From NCBI GenBank assembly GCA_048885525.1, contig JBHLLP010000070.1, forward strand, positions 1 to 12,289: DNA of 12,289 nt, written 5' to 3'. Source of the DNA: Candidatus Hermodarchaeota archaeon. GTDB lineage: Archaea; Asgardarchaeota; Lokiarchaeia; Sigyniarchaeales; SOKP01. Positions 1 through 9,436 of this stretch are shown here, one piece after another; position 1 is the stretch's first letter; each line of letters begins with the position of its first letter. The notes beneath the pieces are model-generated. The model was given only the letters and a program-made list of their open reading frames with translations, was not told where the DNA came from and ran no database searches. The translations under genes and the position numbers were made by a program.

Positions 1-2
1 TT

Positions 3-75
3 AGCGGATTGGTGTAGAGGTCAAGCATTTGGGACTCTGAATCCCGAGACAGCGGTTCGAATCCGCTATCCGCTA
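3..75 (+). tRNA. tRNA-Gln, anticodon CTG (reads CAG), intronless, CCA not encoded
   Basis: Acceptor stem AGCGGAT(3-9)/ATCCGCT(68-74) with discriminator A75. D-arm GTGT/GCAT. Anticodon stem TGGGA/TCCCG with loop CT-CTG-AA (anticodon 37-39). T-arm AGCGG-TTCGAAT-CCGCT. The A1-U72 first pair is typical of archaeal tRNA-Gln. Confidence 0.97.
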
Positions 76-199
76 TTTTAATATTTCATTCTTGAAATTA
101 AAGGCATCAAATTAAATTTGAATAAACATTAAAATATCAACATATCTTATTTAATTATCAATTGGATATCATAAGAAAAAATATATAGTTCCAATAAAA

Positions 200-385: not shown

Positions 386-464
386 ATAAAGTTGCTTAGG
401 AATAGTTATTAAATGCTAACAATAGAAGTGGACTTTTAACCCTTTAAAATAAACAACTTTAATC

Positions 465-516
465 CAAGAAAGATGATTCTGATAAATAAATTATAGTTAT
501 CGGAGGATAAACCTTG
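465..516 (+). promoter_or_regulatory. Candidate eukaryote/Lokiarchaeia-type SECIS element in the 3' UTR
   Basis: ATGA at 473-476, then T. Helix II TCTGATAA(478-485)/TTATCGGA(497-504). AAA at 488-490, exactly 11 nt after ATGA. 3' core GGAT(505-508) gives the UGAU/GGAU non-Watson-Crick quartet. Helix I CAAG(465-468)/CTTG(513-516), or TCCAAG(463-468)/CTTGGA(524-529). Confidence 0.6.
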
Positions 517-538
517 CAAAGGACTTGGAAAAGTATGG

Positions 539-1483: not shown

Positions 1484-3856
1484 TTACAATTTAATAGATC
1501 TTGCAATAACGTTCCTGAAATTCTCAATATCATTTACTAGTTTATCTGCTAATTCATCAGTAATTTTATCATCCTTACCAAATTTATTCAATTCAGTGAG
1601 CCAGTACTCTATTCTCCCAAGAATTGCCTCTTTATCTCCTAAAATCTTTCTTACCCTAACGAAAGTATCGTGTAATTTGGTTCTAATATTTTGGGCTTTC
1701 CATCTTAACATACAATAATCAGAAATTTCAGCTAAATTTTGAGTTATCGCCATCACATCAATCGTTTTTTCTCTTTCCTCCGATTTAATTTTCCTAATAA
1801 TGTTAATTTCTTCAAATAATAACTCAATTATCTTAGCAAGAAAACCTGTTAGCTGTCCTGGATGATTACACCAAACTCTAACCTCTAGTGACTGATTAGA
1901 TTCCGACACATAAACCCTTGTCACAATTCTGCCTCCCCCAACCTTCGCTTCAGAACAATGCCAACTTTCTGCTTCATATTTTCCTTTAGGATCATTACCT
2001 TCATGAGAAGTTACTGTACTTACTTCAAAACGTTTTATTGTTCTTACTGCTGCTCTGAAAGCTAAACGTGGATCTAAATCTGCAATTAAAAATGCTCTAG
2101 CATCATTAGGAAGATCTGAAATTGCTATTTGAATATCCTCGATTGTAGCTAAACATGAAACAACTAATGGACATTTTATCTGAACTTCTTTTTTTCGTAT
2201 GTGTACAGTTCTCTTTTCTCCTGAAGCTCTTTTGTAGATGACATCTCCACCAATATTGGATATTCCACATTCTTTTGGTTCTAAATAGAAATCTACTCCT
2301 CTAGAATTCTTAGCCTCAATAACGGGTATATTAATGAGAGGATCTTTTACTTTATAACTAGAAGGAACATCTAAAAGAACTTTTACTGAATTTATTGCCA
2401 TAGAGGTTTCATTCCTTACAACTACTTTAAAATGAAGTTGACCACCAACGAAATCATATTCACGAACTACTTCAATGTTCCCCCCATCGGTAGGTTTTGG
2501 TGTTACCTTTGCTTTATCAGGAGATTCTATCTCTATAGGTACACTATATGCGGTGAAAGATTTTTTATGCATATCAATATAACCGTCAATATCACCACGC
2601 GCAATAATCTGAGCTAAATTCTCTTCTATACTTGCTTCTGTTACTCCTAATCGATTTGAAAGTTCTCTTAAAGGCATAGTTCTATAAGCTCTAGCAACTT
2701 CTTTTATCTTTTGCTCTAGGTATTTATTAGTCATGAATTCTCTTCGTTGAGTAAATATCCCCTTGATTTTTCCAGTTTTAATTAACTCATGAAGGCTTTT
2801 TCTTGCTAATTCTACTGCAATTTTCAACTTTAATGCTAATTTTGAAAGTTCAAATAACCCTGTTTCTTTAGAATAGTTTTTAATATCTTTATAAATTTGA
2901 TTTGCAGTAATAATTTCATTTCCACGATCTGCAAAAAAGCCATTTACGGCTTTTGCTCTCATTAAATTGACACAAAATGATTTAACAAGTTCTTTTGGTA
3001 TATTAAAATTATTTGCTAGATCTTTTAAGGTAACTCTACCTTTATTTTGAATTTCTTTAATTAAATTATCCATTATATATTTTTGAGTATAGTATATCTC
3101 TTTATCTAATGAGAATGAACCTTTTATCTGAAATTGGTTGATTAATTTGTAAATTACCTTTATCGCAACCTCAGAATTCATATCAAGCATTACGCCTAAA
3201 TCTGCAACATTAACTATACCTTCATCATGGAATTTTGCAAGTATTTTCTCACGCATTTCTGAAGATATGTAATAGAACATTTGATTTTTTTGATCAATAA
3301 TTCCATAGATCCGTTCTTCATCCATGTATTTATTAATAAATTTAATCATTTGCTCTGCAGAAATATTGAAAGAATTAATAATTGTAGAAAAGTTGGTAAG
3401 GGGTGCTCTTTTTAATAGATCTAAAAAACAATTAGGGCAAACTTCTTTTCCAACTATAGATCGCAATCTTTTACTGCATAACACTAATCTGTTCCCTTTA
3501 ATAAGGTTGTATCTTATCGCTTCCCTAACAAGCTTTTCCTTTGAAGGAAAGAATAATCCAGGAGTTTTTAAGTATGAATTCCATGCTTCGGGGCATTGTT
3601 GGTTAGTACATTCTAAATAATATTGTCCTGAAGACAATCTTTCTAATCTTAAAATGTGTTTACATACAGGACATTCACTATTTTCTACAACTGTACATTT
3701 AAAATTTCTTTCAATAGCTTTTACTTTTGAATAGAAGAGATTGTGTTTTTTACATTCATGTGTTTCGGTTGTAGCAATATGATTAATACAGAAACTAGAT
3801 TTGCATTTTTCACACGTAAAATCGATTTTTTGGTTTTCACAGAATAAACATTTCAT
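1484..3856 (-). CDS. Multidomain protein: N-terminal Cys/His zinc fingers, five tandem winged-helix (PCI/DDRGK/UFL1-like) repeats, Ig-like ear plus platform (adaptin/COP/BBSome-type appendage), helical C-terminus
   Basis: 790-aa ORF. Contains C3xxC6...C15xxC18x4C23xxH26, C62xxC65...C83x4C88 and C140xxC143. About 60-aa repeats end in IYGIID, IKGSFS, VNGFFA, IKGIFT and IDGYID (Gly at 185, 246, 306, 366, 425). Beta-sandwich signature FKVVVRNETSMAINSVKVLL...SRGVDFYLEP...IGGDVIY. The CDS is certain; the domain calls are by eye. Confidence 0.8.
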   Translation of the reverse strand: MKCLFCENQKIDFTCEKCKSSFCINHIATTETHECKKHNLFYSKVKAIERNFKCTVVENSECPVCKHILRLERLSSGQYYLECTNQQCPEAWNSYLKTPGLFFPSKEKLVREAIRYNLIKGNRLVLCSKRLRSIVGKEVCPNCFLDLLKRAPLTNFSTIINSFNISAEQMIKFINKYMDEERIYGIIDQKNQMFYYISSEMREKILAKFHDEGIVNVADLGVMLDMNSEVAIKVIYKLINQFQIKGSFSLDKEIYYTQKYIMDNLIKEIQNKGRVTLKDLANNFNIPKELVKSFCVNLMRAKAVNGFFADRGNEIITANQIYKDIKNYSKETGLFELSKLALKLKIAVELARKSLHELIKTGKIKGIFTQRREFMTNKYLEQKIKEVARAYRTMPLRELSNRLGVTEASIEENLAQIIARGDIDGYIDMHKKSFTAYSVPIEIESPDKAKVTPKPTDGGNIEVVREYDFVGGQLHFKVVVRNETSMAINSVKVLLDVPSSYKVKDPLINIPVIEAKNSRGVDFYLEPKECGISNIGGDVIYKRASGEKRTVHIRKKEVQIKCPLVVSCLATIEDIQIAISDLPNDARAFLIADLDPRLAFRAAVRTIKRFEVSTVTSHEGNDPKGKYEAESWHCSEAKVGGGRIVTRVYVSESNQSLEVRVWCNHPGQLTGFLAKIIELLFEEINIIRKIKSEEREKTIDVMAITQNLAEISDYCMLRWKAQNIRTKLHDTFVRVRKILGDKEAILGRIEYWLTELNKFGKDDKITDELADKLVNDIENFRNVIARSIKL

Positions 3857-4016: not shown

Positions 4017-4745
4017 TTAAAATGATACTTCTGGGAAGACAGGAATTTTCAAAAAAGATAATATCATTACGACGGTATTAAATACAATAATTATCAAGAT
4101 CATCATTATTAAAATCCAATTCTTTCTAGATTTATAAGATTTAATAATCTGAGATGTTCCGTGTTTTGCTAATGCAAGTGGAAATAATCCGATAAACGTA
4201 CCTAATGAAAAATAAAACACAATCATAATGCCATCAATAAAGCCAAAACCCCCACCTAATGAATATGTTAAGCATTGAGAATAAATGATAAATTCAAAGA
4301 TACAAGGAGCAAATCCTGCCAAGATCCCGAAAAGATATGGTGTTTTCTTTTTTTCCCAATTGAATTGAAAAATTTCATCCTTGTGTTTTGAATGGGGGAT
4401 ATAATCTTTTCTGGTTATGAAGAATAATAGTATAAATCCAGCAAACATAGAACTAATAGCACCAAAAAAGTTAATAGTAAAGGCATCAGGAATAATCCCC
4501 GGAATTAAGATCTGTGGAATAAAGCTAATCAAAATAGTCCCTAAAGCAATCAATAAATTCGAAGACATCAAACCCAAACCATAAAGCATTAAGATAAATA
4601 TACTTCTTTGTGGGGTTTTAGAAATTCCAAATGACCAAAAAAAGAATATTGCTTTATCTTCACATGGTATTAGAGTATGCAAAATTCCTAAAAGGAATGC
4701 TGGAGCAAAAATTAATAATAATGGTGGTGGGTAAAATTCTAACAT
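4017..4745 (-). CDS. Polytopic membrane protein, CcdA/DsbD-beta or NiCoT/UreH-like (LysE superfamily)
   Basis: About 6 hydrophobic segments. Two Pro-Cys motifs, LHTLIPCEDK (C28) and GILAGFAPCIFE (C148), plus FSLGT in a late helix. Confidence 0.7.
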   Translation of the reverse strand: MLEFYPPPLLLIFAPAFLLGILHTLIPCEDKAIFFFWSFGISKTPQRSIFILMLYGLGLMSSNLLIALGTILISFIPQILIPGIIPDAFTINFFGAISSMFAGFILLFFITRKDYIPHSKHKDEIFQFNWEKKKTPYLFGILAGFAPCIFEFIIYSQCLTYSLGGGFGFIDGIMIVFYFSLGTFIGLFPLALAKHGTSQIIKSYKSRKNWILIMMILIIIVFNTVVMILSFLKIPVFPEVSF

Positions 4746-4821: not shown

Positions 4822-6111
4822 TTAGAATTTTTTATTATTAGATTGCATTTCTTTTGTTAAACAATATTTACTCATGGTATAAAATGAAAGTAATAGAAAG
4901 ATAGTAGGTACAAAATTAAATGGAAAATAGTTTTGCAAGAGGAACCATATTCCCATAAATGCTAAATCAAAGAAACTTAAAAAGAAAAAACTTGGTTTAA
5001 TAAATTCTTTCGTTAATTTCGACTCTCGCGGTAAATTAAATATTATTATTATCAAAAGTGGTGTTAGGATTAAAAGATGATGGTCCCATGAGTCAAAATA
5101 TCCTAGTAGCATTATTAAAATACCTAATGTATATCCATATATTAAAGAGTAATTATCAAGTCTTCTTACTAAATAGAAGACAAATCCTATTCCACCTATA
5201 ATGATAAGAATGATTATAAAAAGGGGTAATTGAAAACTTAATAATTGTGATTGTGAAAAACCTATAAATATAAAGAAGTTTTGAATTAGTTTAGTTATAC
5301 TAAATGAATGATTGATAAGAACTGTATCTTCACCAGTAAAATTTACACTTAGAAAACCTTCAAGTAATTCTGAATGTATTAGAAATATAAAGATATTTAA
5401 TGATAAGGGTATTATAAAGCCAACTAAGCGTATTATTGATTTCAGAAATTGAATTTCAAATTTTTTTATTTCTAAATCAAAATTAATAATTATTAAAAAG
5501 GGAATTAAAAATAAAGTAATTGGTTTAATAATTACGCTAATTCCTAAAATTATACTAGTAACCAAGTTCCATTTTAAACTCTCGTATTTAAGAAAAAGGT
5601 ATAGTGAAATTAGTAAAAAAAGTGTAATATACAAATTAATTTGACCTAAAATGTAATTAAATACTTGCGATAAGCTCATTAAATATAAACAAATATAAAA
5701 TATAACTCTTTTTTCTTCTGGTTCATGATCAACTCCTTTCACTACCATTATTATTTTATATAGGAACTTACAAATTAAGACGTTGAGAATTAGATTAACA
5801 ATATTAAACATAATAAATCCTAAGTCGAATCCTAAAAGATAATATGGTATAAATAATAGAGCTGAGATCGGAAAGTATCTGAAAGGCCAATTGTAGTCAG
5901 CAGTATAGAGATCAGTAATATTATTGATAAACACTTCTCCAACTTTATAATATACTAAAAAATCATTTTGATTTCTAAATATAGTTAGAGTTAGTATTAA
6001 AGAAAGCATAAAATATACACCGTGAAGTATGGTTGCATATCTAAATATCTTATATTGCCAGAGTACTTTAAACCGATTACTAATTTTGCTATATAACTTC
6101 TCTATTACCAT
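4822..6111 (-). CDS. GT87/DUF2029-like GT-C membrane glycosyltransferase (paralog C)
   Basis: Motifs NDFLVYYKVG, FRYFPISALLF, GQINLYIT, IIKP and DSWDHHLLILTP; about 10-11 TM segments. Confidence 0.85.
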   Translation of the reverse strand: MVIEKLYSKISNRFKVLWQYKIFRYATILHGVYFMLSLILTLTIFRNQNDFLVYYKVGEVFINNITDLYTADYNWPFRYFPISALLFIPYYLLGFDLGFIMFNIVNLILNVLICKFLYKIIMVVKGVDHEPEEKRVIFYICLYLMSLSQVFNYILGQINLYITLFLLISLYLFLKYESLKWNLVTSIILGISVIIKPITLFLIPFLIIINFDLEIKKFEIQFLKSIIRLVGFIIPLSLNIFIFLIHSELLEGFLSVNFTGEDTVLINHSFSITKLIQNFFIFIGFSQSQLLSFQLPLFIIILIIIGGIGFVFYLVRRLDNYSLIYGYTLGILIMLLGYFDSWDHHLLILTPLLIIIIFNLPRESKLTKEFIKPSFFFLSFFDLAFMGIWFLLQNYFPFNFVPTIFLLLSFYTMSKYCLTKEMQSNNKKF

Positions 6112-6118
6112 TTTTAAT

Positions 6119-6868
6119 TCATTTTCTTTTAACGAATTTTCTTTTTTTAGTTATATATATTATTATACTAAGAGTTAAAACACATATCAATCCAATCAAT
6201 GTAGGTATTACATAAATCGGTATAAATTCAAAAGCTATATCTATAATAACGACATTTTCATTAATATAGAGTTTATAAGAACTAAGAATTCCTTGATCGT
6301 TATAAATAGTAATAATTTTAATATCTTTTAAAGGAACTCCGGGTAATACTGCATTTTCTTTAATCTCAACATTTAAAGTAGGTAAAACTCTATTGTCTAC
6401 ATCGTACCACTCATTTAAACTTAAACTAGCCAAATAGTCCCCTATGGGAATTGGAAACCAAAATGGGACAAAAGAGGTATCATTTGAAAAATTCCATCCT
6501 TGAGGGTAGTTTTTTGGATTTGAAAAATAGATCATTTGAGAATCATTATCTTTATCGCCCCAAATTTTTCTACTAGTCCATATCCAAATGCTAAAATTTA
6601 TTTTTAAATATATTTCATTATATTCTGTATCTGTGATTTTCCATTTCATCTTTGTTCCTTTGCTTAGATTTTGAAATATTCCAGACGCATCCCAATTATT
6701 ACCAAAAATGTTATCCATCTCATTTTCATTACATAATTTACATTTCCATACTAATTCTTGATCTCTTTGGACTCCTATATTATAATTAATAGCAGCTACA
6801 TTTGAAATTAAATTGCTAACTAATAAGAGAAGAAGTGTAAACTTTAAAACAATTTTTTTCAGTTTCAC
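6119..6868 (-). CDS. Secreted, C-terminally membrane-anchored protein of unknown function
   Basis: Signal peptide MKLKKIVLKFTLLLLLVSNLISNVAA. C-terminal IPIYVIP, TM helix and KKRKFVKRK tail. Five N-X-S/T sequons and a CKLC motif. The GTG start overlaps the upstream TAG stop (TAGTG) and is preceded by GGAGGT. Confidence 0.85.
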   Translation of the reverse strand: MKLKKIVLKFTLLLLLVSNLISNVAAINYNIGVQRDQELVWKCKLCNENEMDNIFGNNWDASGIFQNLSKGTKMKWKITDTEYNEIYLKINFSIWIWTSRKIWGDKDNDSQMIYFSNPKNYPQGWNFSNDTSFVPFWFPIPIGDYLASLSLNEWYDVDNRVLPTLNVEIKENAVLPGVPLKDIKIITIYNDQGILSSYKLYINENVVIIDIAFEFIPIYVIPTLIGLICVLTLSIIIYITKKRKFVKRK

Positions 6869-8142
6869 TAAATTAAACCTCCCGTTTTCTCATTCGTTTG
6901 TTTTAATAAACAATATTTGCTTATTGCATAGAAAGATAATAGTAAAAAGAGAGTAGGTAGAAAATTATATGGAAATATCAGATATATTTGCATCCAGATA
7001 CCTGTAAAAATAAGACTGAAAAAACTAAAGAAAAAAATGCTAATATTTAATGCACGATTTATCTTTAAATCAAAAGGTAAGTTAAAGAAAATAATAATTA
7101 AGATTGGTATTAGAGTGAGTAAATGATGATCCCACGAGTCAAAATATACAAGTAAAGTAATGATAATTCCAAAGAAGTAACTATATAAGATAGAATTATT
7201 TTCAAATCTTCTAAATATAAAGATTATAAAACCTAAACCCCCTATAATGACAATAACTCCTAAAATTATAAAAATCTGATTAAATGGAATGTTATAAAAA
7301 TAATAGAAATTAACAATTAACTGAGAAATACTAAATGAAAAACTTTGAGCGATTGGATTGTTTCCTGTAAAATTGGCATTTAAGAAACCTTCCCAAAACG
7401 TTGGATAAAAGAAGAAAAAAATGAGGTTCAATAATACAGGTAACAAAACTCCAATTACTCTAATTATACTTCGATAAACATCAAACTTTATCTTTCGATT
7501 TTCTAAATCGAATTGAAGTATTATTAAGAAAGGGATTAAAAAGAAAGTAGTGGGTTTTATGGTAATACTTACTCCTAATATAAAGCTTGCTAAAAAGTTC
7601 CATTTAATTTCTTCATATTTTAGAAACAAGAAAAGAGATAGTAAAACTAAGAAGGTAACGTATAAGTTTATTTGCCCTAAAATATAATTAAAAATATTAG
7701 GTAATCCAATTAAAAAAATACATATATAATCTATAACTTTCTTCTCATTCTTTTCATGATTTTCACTTCTAATGAGAATAATTATTTTATAAAGGATTAG
7801 GCAGATTAAAATGTTTAAAATTAGATTAAAACAATTAAATATTATAAAACCTAAATCAAAACCCATTAAGTAAAAAGGTACAAAAAAGTATGCTGAAACT
7901 GGAAAATATCTAAATGGCACAATAAAATCAAAAGTGTAGAGATTGTTGATATCATGAAGAACAACTTCACCCGTTATATAATAAACTCGAAAATCGTTTT
8001 GATATCTAAAAAGATTTAGCGTTAGAAACAAGGATAATATAAAGTAGCTTAAATGAATTAAAAAAGCAATTCGAAAAACCTTATAATCCCATAAATTTCT
8101 AAATAATTTTTTTATTTTTAATAAAAAAGGAATCAATTTCAT
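6868..8142 (-). CDS. GT87/DUF2029-like GT-C membrane glycosyltransferase (paralog B)
   Basis: Motifs NDFRVYYITG, FRYFPVSAYFF, GQINLYVT, TIKP and DSWDHHLLTLIP; colinear with paralogs A and C. Confidence 0.85.
   Translation of the reverse strand: MKLIPFLLKIKKLFRNLWDYKVFRIAFLIHLSYFILSLFLTLNLFRYQNDFRVYYITGEVVLHDINNLYTFDFIVPFRYFPVSAYFFVPFYLMGFDLGFIIFNCFNLILNILICLILYKIIILIRSENHEKNEKKVIDYICIFLIGLPNIFNYILGQINLYVTFLVLLSLFLFLKYEEIKWNFLASFILGVSITIKPTTFFLIPFLIILQFDLENRKIKFDVYRSIIRVIGVLLPVLLNLIFFFFYPTFWEGFLNANFTGNNPIAQSFSFSISQLIVNFYYFYNIPFNQIFIILGVIVIIGGLGFIIFIFRRFENNSILYSYFFGIIITLLVYFDSWDHHLLTLIPILIIIFFNLPFDLKINRALNISIFFFSFFSLIFTGIWMQIYLIFPYNFLPTLFLLLSFYAISKYCLLKQTNEKTGGLI
6877..6882 (-). promoter_or_regulatory. 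Shine-Dalgarno sequence GGAGGT for the 249-aa gene (translational coupling)
   Basis: ACCTCC on the + strand, 8 nt from the GTG start at 6868, inside the 3' end of the upstream GT87 gene. Confidence 0.7.
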
Positions 8143-8173: not shown

Positions 8174-9436
8174 TTATTTTCCTTGTTTTATTAAACAATA
8201 TTTACTTATCGCGTAGAAAGCTAAAGTAAGAAAGAAAGTAGATTCAAAATTATAAGGAAATAATGGATATGTAAGATACCAAAAACCCGTAAAGGCGAGA
8301 TCAAAGAAGCTAAAGAAGAATAAACTCAATTTAATAGGCTTAACCGTTTCTGATTGTCGGGGTATATTAAACATAATTATAATTAAAATTGGAGTTAAAT
8401 TCAGTAAATGATGGTCCCATGAATCAAAGTATGCTATTAGCATTATGATAATTCCATATGAATAACCAAATATGATTGAATTTTCTTCAAATCTTCTTAT
8501 TATGAAGATTACAAACCCTAAAAACCCAAAAATTCCAATAACTCCAATAAATATGAAGAGTTGATTAAAGGGAATATTATAAAAGAAACAGAAGTTAATA
8601 ATAAGCTTAGTGAGGCTAAAAGAAAAATTAAGAGCTATTGGATTGCTCCCTGTAAAGTTAGTATCCAAAAAACCTTCCCATAATGTAGGATACAAGAAAA
8701 AGAGGATAAAATTCAACAAAATGGGTGTACAAACTCCTGCTAAACGAATTAAGCTTCTTGAAATATCAATTTTCAATTCTTTATGCTCTAAATCAAAATT
8801 AATTATAATTAAAAATGGAATTAACAGAATTGCAGTAGGTTTTATGATGATACTTAATCCAAGGATAATACTACTCAATAATTGCCATTTATAATCTGAA
8901 AATTTAAGGAAAATATAAAGAGATAATAAGATAAAAAATGTAATGTATAAGTTAATTTGCCCGTAAATATAATTCAAAACATGAGGTACTCCCATTAAAT
9001 AAATACATATATATGAAATTACCCTTTTATCATTTTTTTCATGATTTTTGTATTTAATTATAAAAATTATTTTATAGAGAAGAATACATATTAGGAAGTT
9101 TAGAATTAAATTAAAAATATTAAAAATTACAAATGCAAATTGAAAATCAAAGAAGGAAAATGGAATAAAGAATATAGCAGATAATGGAAAATATCTAAAA
9201 TCCCATAAGTAATAAGCTTGATTATAAAGATTTTCAATATCATTAAGAAATATCTTTCCTACATTATAAAATATTATGAAATCATTTTTTGTTTGGTAGA
9301 ATATGAAAAATAATATAATTGATAGTACGAAATAAAAACTATGGAGAAGTAGGGCATACCTAAATACTTTTTGCTTCAATAATTCTCTAATTCTCTTAAT
9401 AAATGTATATTTTAGACTCATTGAGTCATTATCCAT
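8174..9436 (-). CDS. GT87/DUF2029-like GT-C membrane glycosyltransferase (paralog A)
   Basis: Motifs NDFIIFYNVG, FRYFPLSAIFF, GQINLYIT, IIKP and DSWDHHLLNLTP. Confidence 0.85.
   Translation of the reverse strand: MDNDSMSLKYTFIKRIRELLKQKVFRYALLLHSFYFVLSIILFFIFYQTKNDFIIFYNVGKIFLNDIENLYNQAYYLWDFRYFPLSAIFFIPFSFFDFQFAFVIFNIFNLILNFLICILLYKIIFIIKYKNHEKNDKRVISYICIYLMGVPHVLNYIYGQINLYITFFILLSLYIFLKFSDYKWQLLSSIILGLSIIIKPTAILLIPFLIIINFDLEHKELKIDISRSLIRLAGVCTPILLNFILFFLYPTLWEGFLDTNFTGSNPIALNFSFSLTKLIINFCFFYNIPFNQLFIFIGVIGIFGFLGFVIFIIRRFEENSIIFGYSYGIIIMLIAYFDSWDHHLLNLTPILIIIMFNIPRQSETVKPIKLSLFFFSFFDLAFTGFWYLTYPLFPYNFESTFFLTLAFYAISKYCLIKQGK

Follow-up and report, generated by a model that had tools for sequence, protein, structure and literature searches.

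A predicted Asgard-type SECIS element downstream of a candidate membrane selenoprotein gene in a Candidatus Hermodarchaeota genome

The locus and its genome

The window (the whole 12,289-nucleotide stretch of DNA that was analyzed) is the start of contig C70 in a 3.58-Mb genome with 29.4% GC. An Rfam scan identified a tRNA-Gln gene at the very start of the window (2-76, + strand), and a convergent gene predicted to encode a PpiC-type parvulin occupies 539-898 on the − strand. An RNA hairpin on the + strand (463-529) is located past the parvulin stop codon at a distance of 9 nt. The sole + strand coding candidate between the tRNA-Gln gene and the hairpin is a small ORF (200-385; stop codon TAA at 383-385), and it is open only when the TGA at 293-295 is read through. 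With this UGA read as selenocysteine (Sec, U), the ORF has 61 codons (MRVNEHLL...TVLAUGNRITSFD...YILSD); the proposed Sec codon is codon 32, at the end of the first predicted helix, and it falls in a near-invariant column in the alignment of relatives.

The host genome contains a tRNA-Sec gene adjoining a SepSecS gene, and a SelB-like factor is encoded 6 kb from this pair, with a score below the cut-off of the bacterial model. The SelD gene of the host itself carries an in-frame TGA, indicating a Sec-containing SelD. TGA also serves as an ordinary stop codon in this organism: it terminates 186 of the 1452 long open frames in the genome, as well as one of the nine large ORFs in the window. ARAGORN identified just 14 tRNA genes in the genome, which is rated 99% complete; intron-containing or split tRNAs may have been missed by this program.

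The remainder of the window encodes several larger proteins. An ORF at 1484-3856 (− strand) encodes a 790-residue protein with PCI, E3 UFM1-ligase-like, DDRGK, and VPS28-like domains; this mix of eukaryote-signature domains suggests UFMylation-like or ESCRT-linked machinery and is consistent with placement in the Asgard archaea. A DsbD_2-type membrane protein (cytochrome c biogenesis or thiol-disulfide transporter-like) is encoded at 4017-4745 (− strand), 3.5 kb from the small ORF. Three tandem ORFs (4822-6111, 6868-8142, and 8174-9436, all on the − strand) encode paralogous polytopic membrane proteins, and the one that was scanned matched glycosyltransferase family 87. Between them, 6119-6868 encodes a small protein that is secreted or anchored.

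We compared the window to four sequencing runs. The matches consisted of identical DNA contigs and one diverged SECIS paralog; the RNA run yielded no match and is uninformative on expression. The diverged sequence (run X5, record 2) comes from a second contig in an independent sediment run and aligns to 469-525 of the window, with a SECIS core that has eight differences and with unrelated flanks. It is probably a paralogous SECIS from another organism or locus.

The RNA element at 463-529 and its counterparts in the genome

In the + strand transcript, the element folds into three helices. Helix I pairs UCCAAG (463-468) with CUUGGA (524-529). It is followed on the 5' side by an internal loop (AAAG, 469-472) that is A-rich in all alignment rows, and then by AUGA (473-476), the 5' half of a kink-turn-like quartet, in which the G and A are invariant in alignments A5 and A7. 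Helix II pairs UUCUGAUAA (477-485) with UUAUCGGAG (497-505), and it is capped by an 11-nt apical loop, AUAAAUUAUAG (486-496), which has an A-rich start (AUAAA) and ends in AG; the AAAU and UAG of this loop are invariant in the other SECIS elements of the genome. The GA that forms the 3' half of the tandem G.A/A.G core, together with U508, which faces U474, spans 506-508; the A and U are invariant, and the G is near-invariant. On the 3' strand, a side hairpin (CCUU-GCA-AAGG, 512-522) follows helix II and precedes the 3' arm of helix I.

Based on the letters alone, an initial annotation of this DNA described a compact SECIS-like kink-turn hairpin in the + transcript, with a non-Watson-Crick quartet, an 8-bp helix II, and AAA located 11 nt past AUGA. 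All of these features are present. The quartet comprises U474.U508, G475.A507, A476.G506, and U477.G505; the nine positions of helix II consist of eight Watson-Crick or G.U pairs plus U477.G505, with no mismatches when G.U is allowed; and the AAA lies at 488-490, with 11 nt intervening. The element fits the published lokiSECIS layout as well as a model built from the hdrA and vhuD SECIS elements of the same genome (described below). The fold energy of the + strand is -16.3 kcal/mol (z -2.63 vs. shuffled sequences), compared to -11.3 kcal/mol (z -1.29) for the − strand. This difference bears out the contention that the structure is specific to the + strand and is not a terminator of the parvulin gene, as do the G.U pairs and the G.A core, which occur on the + strand only.

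The lokiSECIS is defined by AUGA, a 9-bp stem, an 11-nt apical loop, and GA (or AA) 3' of the stem, and within the loop the first five letters are A-rich and the last is G, usually after A (Mariotti 2016, PMC4989117, in the portion of the text available to us). An Rfam scan of the whole window with E-values up to 10 returned the tRNA-Gln and two sub-threshold chance matches, and SECIS families were absent. This result is what the initial annotation anticipated for tools trained on eukaryotic elements, and it agrees with the statement, in the same portion of Mariotti 2016, that existing eukaryotic, archaeal, and bacterial models miss lokiSECIS. The appropriate comparison class is the eukaryote-like SECIS of Asgard archaea, rather than the eukaryotic SECIS.

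To find similar elements in the genome, we scanned both strands for ATGA, a 9-bp stem with ≤1 mismatch, an 11-nt loop, and GA. This strict scan produced 14 matches, and only the window element had zero mismatches. When the loop motif was added, the scan retained elements on contigs C1, C6, C24, C35, and C64, in addition to the window element. (A looser regular expression for SECIS-like hairpins gave 122 matches, mostly spurious, and was replaced by the loop-motif scan and a covariance model.) The elements on C6 and C24 are each preceded by an hdrA-vhuD pair, and the element on C64 by hdrA, with in-frame TGAs in all cases; Pfam identified FlpD and FAD/4Fe-4S HdrA-like domains in these frames, and the TGAs occur inside the matched frames.

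We then trained a covariance model, R1, on the C1, C6, C24, C35, and C64 elements, with the window element left out; three of these five elements follow hdrA or vhuD, whereas those on C1 and C35 follow ORFs of no known family. R1 matched 467-513 of the window at 36.9 bits, with E-values of 5.7e-7 for the window and 1.6e-4 for the genome, both of which are rough owing to shortened calibration. The window element is the top non-training match in the 3.58-Mb genome (the next two score 32.1 and 23 bits), and the second-best match within the window reaches 14.0 bits. A comparison with the organism's genuine SECIS elements had been put forward as a check that could overturn the hairpin assignment; the outcome at 36.9 bits is a match. 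The training elements score 55-63 bits. The window element differs from the hdrA/vhuD consensus in having AG instead of GA as the two letters before AUGA and GAU instead of GAC, and these departures lower its score by roughly 20 bits relative to the training elements. Judged by eye, the hdrA/vhuD elements of the host share the three-helix layout.

A scan of 185,579 species genomes with the consensus motif identified 12 stretches, 11 of them in genomes assembled from metagenomes titled Promethearchaeota and one titled Candidatus Odinarchaeota; by these titles, every match is from Asgard archaea. We conclude that the hairpin is very probably a real Asgard-type SECIS.

Other elements in the host genome lie near ORFs of interest in their own right. 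On C1, an ORF at 79278-79815 without a Pfam family contains two adjacent in-frame TGAs (VVHADUUADVM) and ends 8 nt before a SECIS that scores 55.2 bits; it may encode a selenoprotein with a Sec-Sec pair. On C35, a small ORF (26270-26571), also without a Pfam family, encodes a single-helix membrane protein with the sequence GGGGUACLIGYF, and the SECIS overlaps the end of this ORF, whose stop codon is probably a second TGA located ~20 nt before AUGA. The 32.1-bit match (C40:22985-23031) has a loop ending in UUG rather than UAG and lies behind a tiny zinc-ribbon-like ORF (CxxC...CxxC) ending in SFKU; it may represent another Sec gene or a degenerate element. The 23-bit match (C2:20924-20964) was judged spurious because it is located within an ordinary coding frame and has no TGA-bearing ORF upstream.

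Covariation across the elements of related loci (see below) was assessed with 32 sequences, and also with a 20-row set that included two non-family elements. Among these 32, 83.9% of the cells were paired, compared to 74.1% after shuffling and 31-54% in slid controls. Changes on both sides occurred in 15 of the 19 pairs, a count reached by 0 of 500 shuffles, although such shuffle counts overstate significance because the relatives are not independent. By helix, both-side changes affected 6 of 6 pairs in helix I, 7 of 9 in helix II, and 2 of 4 in the side hairpin, where C-G/U-A exchanges were found at two pairs. Thus, the base TCCAAG/CTTGGA and its enclosed side hairpin, offered in the initial annotation as an alternative base, find support across the related elements. 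RNAalifold predicted helix II (eight pairs) and the side hairpin unaided and did not recover helix I. At the first position of helix II, most elements have U.U and the window has U.G, so the quartet is U.U / G.A / A.G / U.U(G), as had been proposed. Two elements, in genomes G007 (G007c; L010:267-313, − strand) and G074 (L020:1704-1751, + strand), have AGGA in place of AUGA, with the rest of the element conserved.

A family of small ORFs with an in-frame UGA

A search with the single protein sequence in 61 genomes identified one weak relative, which also bears a TGA. At the locus of this relative, four small ORFs lie in tandem, and in every one of them a TGA separates two hydrophobic segments; the locus also has two R1 matches, at 46.6 and 45.6 bits. 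A word-index protein search found two homologs only. Profile searches identified TGA-bearing sequences in 21 of 28 rows at the level of the genus (54 genomes), in 36 of 44 rows at the level of the class (161 genomes), and in 36 of 48 rows at the level of the phylum (400 genomes). All TGA-bearing matches belong to one taxonomic family, specifically 18 genomes from the window's genus (G000 among them) and six from a second genus, so the distribution is patchy (24 of 400 sampled Asgard genomes). Profile matches outside that taxonomic family are weak and lack the TGA. Six weak loci without TGA (G036, G008, G000:C5, G025, G063, and G031 contig C54) were rejected as longer, unrelated membrane proteins, and a search of these six loci with R1 found no match; G031 has a separate TGA-bearing member on contig C103.

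We extracted 36 family ORFs, and all 36 have an R1 match downstream on the same strand (23.9-49.3 bits). The UGA is kept in the inter-helix loop in 34 of the 36. One SECIS accompanies one to three ORFs; in G007, for example, there are seven ORFs and four SECIS elements. Gene contexts vary (e.g., locus L008), and no conserved neighbor was seen in a non-systematic check. In the window, the stop codon of the ORF is 88 nt from AUGA. Measured instead between the final sense codon and the beginning of the R1 match, the distance is 84 nt, which is longer than in most single-ORF members and falls inside the -16 to 505 nt spanned by the family. Distances from UGA to AUGA range from 110 to 622 nt in the family, and the distance in the window is 180 nt on this measure, with the UGA at 293-295 preceding the core by 178 nt; in this table, the row for G120 was measured from a spurious upstream U.

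Several members depart from the common pattern. The G145 member (L060 589-813, − strand) has three in-frame TGAs in the loop (LQLUGUGGUYY). In G077 (L015 1486-1701), the closest relative of the window ORF within its genus, the stop codon is the UGA in the AUGA core of the SECIS. In G003 (L049 604-881), the Sec codon is replaced by a Gly codon, and the member's own SECIS is kept at 32 bits; in G007 (L010 1256-1450), the replacement is Ser, and a SECIS is kept nearby. Since these two UGA-less members still lie near a SECIS, relics exist in the family.

In a 22-member alignment (A6), the Sec column contains 21 U and one Ser, and it is the sole near-invariant column besides Met1. We examined the codons past the UGA in two pairs of orthologs: in the first pair, the 35 codons comprise 14 identical, 15 synonymous, and six nonsynonymous; in the second pair, the 38 codons comprise 20 identical, 13 synonymous, and five nonsynonymous. 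This excess of synonymous changes in both pairs indicates that the second half of the ORF is under protein-coding constraint, and the coding signature on both sides of the UGA, a standard criterion for selenoproteins, is therefore present. Orthologs of the window ORF in the second genus keep ANxVLAUGNRxxxFDIxSG, and their SECIS elements carry AGAUGA and GGAGGAU, which are otherwise specific to the window.

New selenoproteins are usually recognized by a Cys homolog aligned to the UGA, and the loop Sec lacks such a homolog. An exhaustive HMMER search of 1.84 billion representatives returned 11 proteins, 10 of them small; at the loop Sec column, these 10 have W (7), S (1), P (1), or G (1), and Cys is found in 0 of 10. 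Exchange between Cys and Sec is confined to a second, minor site, located in helix 2. The W forms suggest TGA codons called under a translation table in which TGA encodes Trp, given that one of these proteins (P0006) has W at both positions that hold U in a G007 paralog. The eleventh protein (P0009; 3142 aa, aligned over 11 short stretches) is a low-complexity match and was rejected as a family member.

AlphaFold2, run on the family alignment, predicted alpha-helices at residues 5-31 and 41-60, with U32 ending helix 1 (mean pLDDT 77). For 21 of the 36 members, we counted Lys and Arg residues: N-terminal tails contain 51, loops contain 12, and C-terminal tails contain 59. Under the positive-inside rule, this bias assigns the two ends to the cytoplasm and puts the Sec loop on the outside. 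The window protein is itself weakly charged, and its ends are predicted to be cytoplasmic by homology. Neither Pfam nor NCBIfam has a model that covers a consistent part of the family. As a guess, the role could be that of a membrane-anchored extracytoplasmic selenol for redox or metal/chalcogen handling, possibly dimeric.

Interpretation and comparison with known systems

Based on sequence evidence, we put a probability of roughly 0.88 on the reading that 463-529 is a functional eukaryote-like class I SECIS of the Asgard type that serves the gene at 200-385, with Sec at the UGA at 293-295. Under this reading, the SECIS would lie in the 3' untranslated region of this small gene's mRNA, where the transcript would fold into helix I, the A-rich internal loop, a core that resembles a kink-turn and has tandem G.A/A.G pairs between U.U and U.G, an 8-9-bp helix II, the 11-nt A-rich loop, and the side hairpin. 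The folded element would recruit the Sec-specific elongation factor with Sec-tRNA(Sec), either directly or via an adaptor, and the UGA would then be decoded as Sec instead of as a stop. The predicted product is a 61-residue membrane hairpin of two helices, whose only Sec would lie where helix 1 ends, at the outer membrane face. Related microproteins would be made within one Asgard family, often from tandem arrays, with one SECIS for one to three ORFs.

The alternative that survives best, which we nevertheless consider improbable, is that the SECIS is a relic or inactive, such that the UGA at 293 ends a 31-residue peptide or the gene is silent. The Gly variant in G003 (with its 32-bit match) and the Ser variant in G007 show that a SECIS can be kept without the UGA; moreover, the window element scores below the training set (36.9 vs. 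55-63 bits), and its spacer from the stop codon exceeds that of most members. However, helix II has accumulated no mismatches, the letters of the core are intact, and the ORF is open through the full second helix to the TAA. Orthologs in another genus preserve the sequence past the UGA, and the SECIS elements of those orthologs share the variant letters that lower the score in the window, which points to selection on a subtype and not to decay.

A kink-turn RNA with a role unrelated to Sec is less probable still. The element could be an L7Ae-bound regulatory or stabilizing structure in a 3' untranslated region, or part of a small RNA, in which case the two halves of the ORF would not form one protein. 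Kink-turns are common L7Ae targets in archaea. No SBP2 or other SECIS-binding factor is known in Asgard archaea, according to the portion of Mariotti 2016 (PMC4989117) available to us. Against this alternative, elements of the same type occur behind hdrA-vhuD, where the TGAs are inside frames matched by Pfam as FlpD and HdrA-like; the element and an in-frame UGA occur together in 34 of 36 family ORFs; and purifying selection continues past the UGA. Least probable of all is a chance AT-rich hairpin, or a terminator or stabilizer of the convergent parvulin gene (539-898, − strand): the element is 9 nt past the parvulin stop codon in an AT-rich genome (29% GC) where hairpins are frequent, but the − strand fold is weak, the G.U pairs and G.A core are confined to the + strand, and chance is excluded by the R1 E-value together with conservation in 24 genomes, other gene contexts, and covariation.

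Returning to the reading of a functional SECIS, the class of element is known, whereas the element described here, the family of genes, and the three-helix architecture seem to be new. Using known families as queries, Huang 2024 (PMC11227280) lists seven Asgard selenoprotein families, and a 2026 review (PMC13188914) gives the same set; Sun 2021 (PMC9723677) and PMC11291895 report only HdrA, Prx, MvhD, SPS, and VhuU, in each case as far as the accessible part of the source extends. A search of full-text literature on membrane or small selenoproteins of Asgard archaea found nothing. Homology to known families was the basis of the published Asgard selenoproteomes; consequently, families without Cys homologs would be invisible to them. 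We consider it likely that the ORFs described here are an undescribed group of two-helix membrane microproteins with Sec, restricted so far to one Asgard family, with Sec as the one conserved residue, placed at the outer membrane face and having no Cys form there. The genes would occur in arrays of up to seven, with as many as three ORFs recoded by one SECIS. This SECIS, as with the hdrA/vhuD elements of these genomes, would be a three-helix junction that includes a conserved 3' side hairpin, in contrast to the plain stem-loop of published models. With similar confidence, we expect the small membrane selenoprotein family to be both real and unreported.

Starting from SECIS elements rather than from known proteins uncovers more: this family and, in the host genome, at least two other candidates. 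Among known organisms, Asgard archaea are the nearest relatives of eukaryotes, and the SECIS they use is regarded as a bridge from archaeal to eukaryotic Sec decoding. If true, no membrane-integral selenoprotein family would have been known in archaea before this one, and an outside-exposed Sec on a hairpin of 60-75 residues, never replaced by Cys, would be an uncommon way to use selenium. The covarying helix I and side hairpin would sharpen search models for Asgard SECIS, and they supply constraints for seeking the archaeal SECIS-binding factor.

Among eukaryotic selenoproteins, SelK and SelS are short single-pass ER proteins that lack a thioredoxin fold and carry one Sec close to a disordered C-terminus in the cytosol. 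The window family is likewise short and membrane-anchored, with a single Sec and no thioredoxin fold; it differs in being a hairpin of two helices that has Sec at its turn, and we detected no sequence relation between the two groups. The SBP2-bound kink-turn SECIS of eukaryotes, as represented in Rfam, resembles the window element in its AUGA...GA quartet, unpaired As in the loop, placement in the 3' untranslated region, and position at a distance from the UGA on which it would act. Helix II of the eukaryotic SECIS is ~12-14 bp, whereas that of the window element is 8-9 bp; in addition, the window element has a side hairpin on its 3' strand and no Rfam SECIS match.

The canonical SECIS of Methanococcales and Methanopyrus shares a location in the 3' untranslated region and the archaeal Sec machinery (the PSTK/SepSecS route, with SepSecS found here). 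Canonical euryarchaeal elements are described in the available portion of Mariotti 2016 (PMC4989117) as having a GAA_A bulge flanked by a GC-rich lower stem and an upper stem of three G-C base pairs; we looked for this bulge and for a GC-only upper stem in 455-535, and both are absent. The stems there are A/U-rich.

The closest counterpart is the eukaryote-like type I SECIS of Asgard archaea, as set out in the accessible parts of PMC4989117 and PMC11227280. The differences are that the family served here is outside the seven reported Asgard selenoprotein families (PMC11227280), and that helix I covariation and the 3' side hairpin do not appear in the accessible text on the published models; as given there, the model of Huang 2024 (PMC11227280) comprises the core, upper stem, and apical loop only. 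The likenesses are AUGA, the nine-position stem, the 11-nt loop ending in AG, and GA, along with a position in the 3' untranslated region near the stop codon and the use of one element for more than one ORF. In the Asgard type I elements of those sources, the stop codon may also coincide with the UGA of AUGA, and the same arrangement is found here in the relative from G077.
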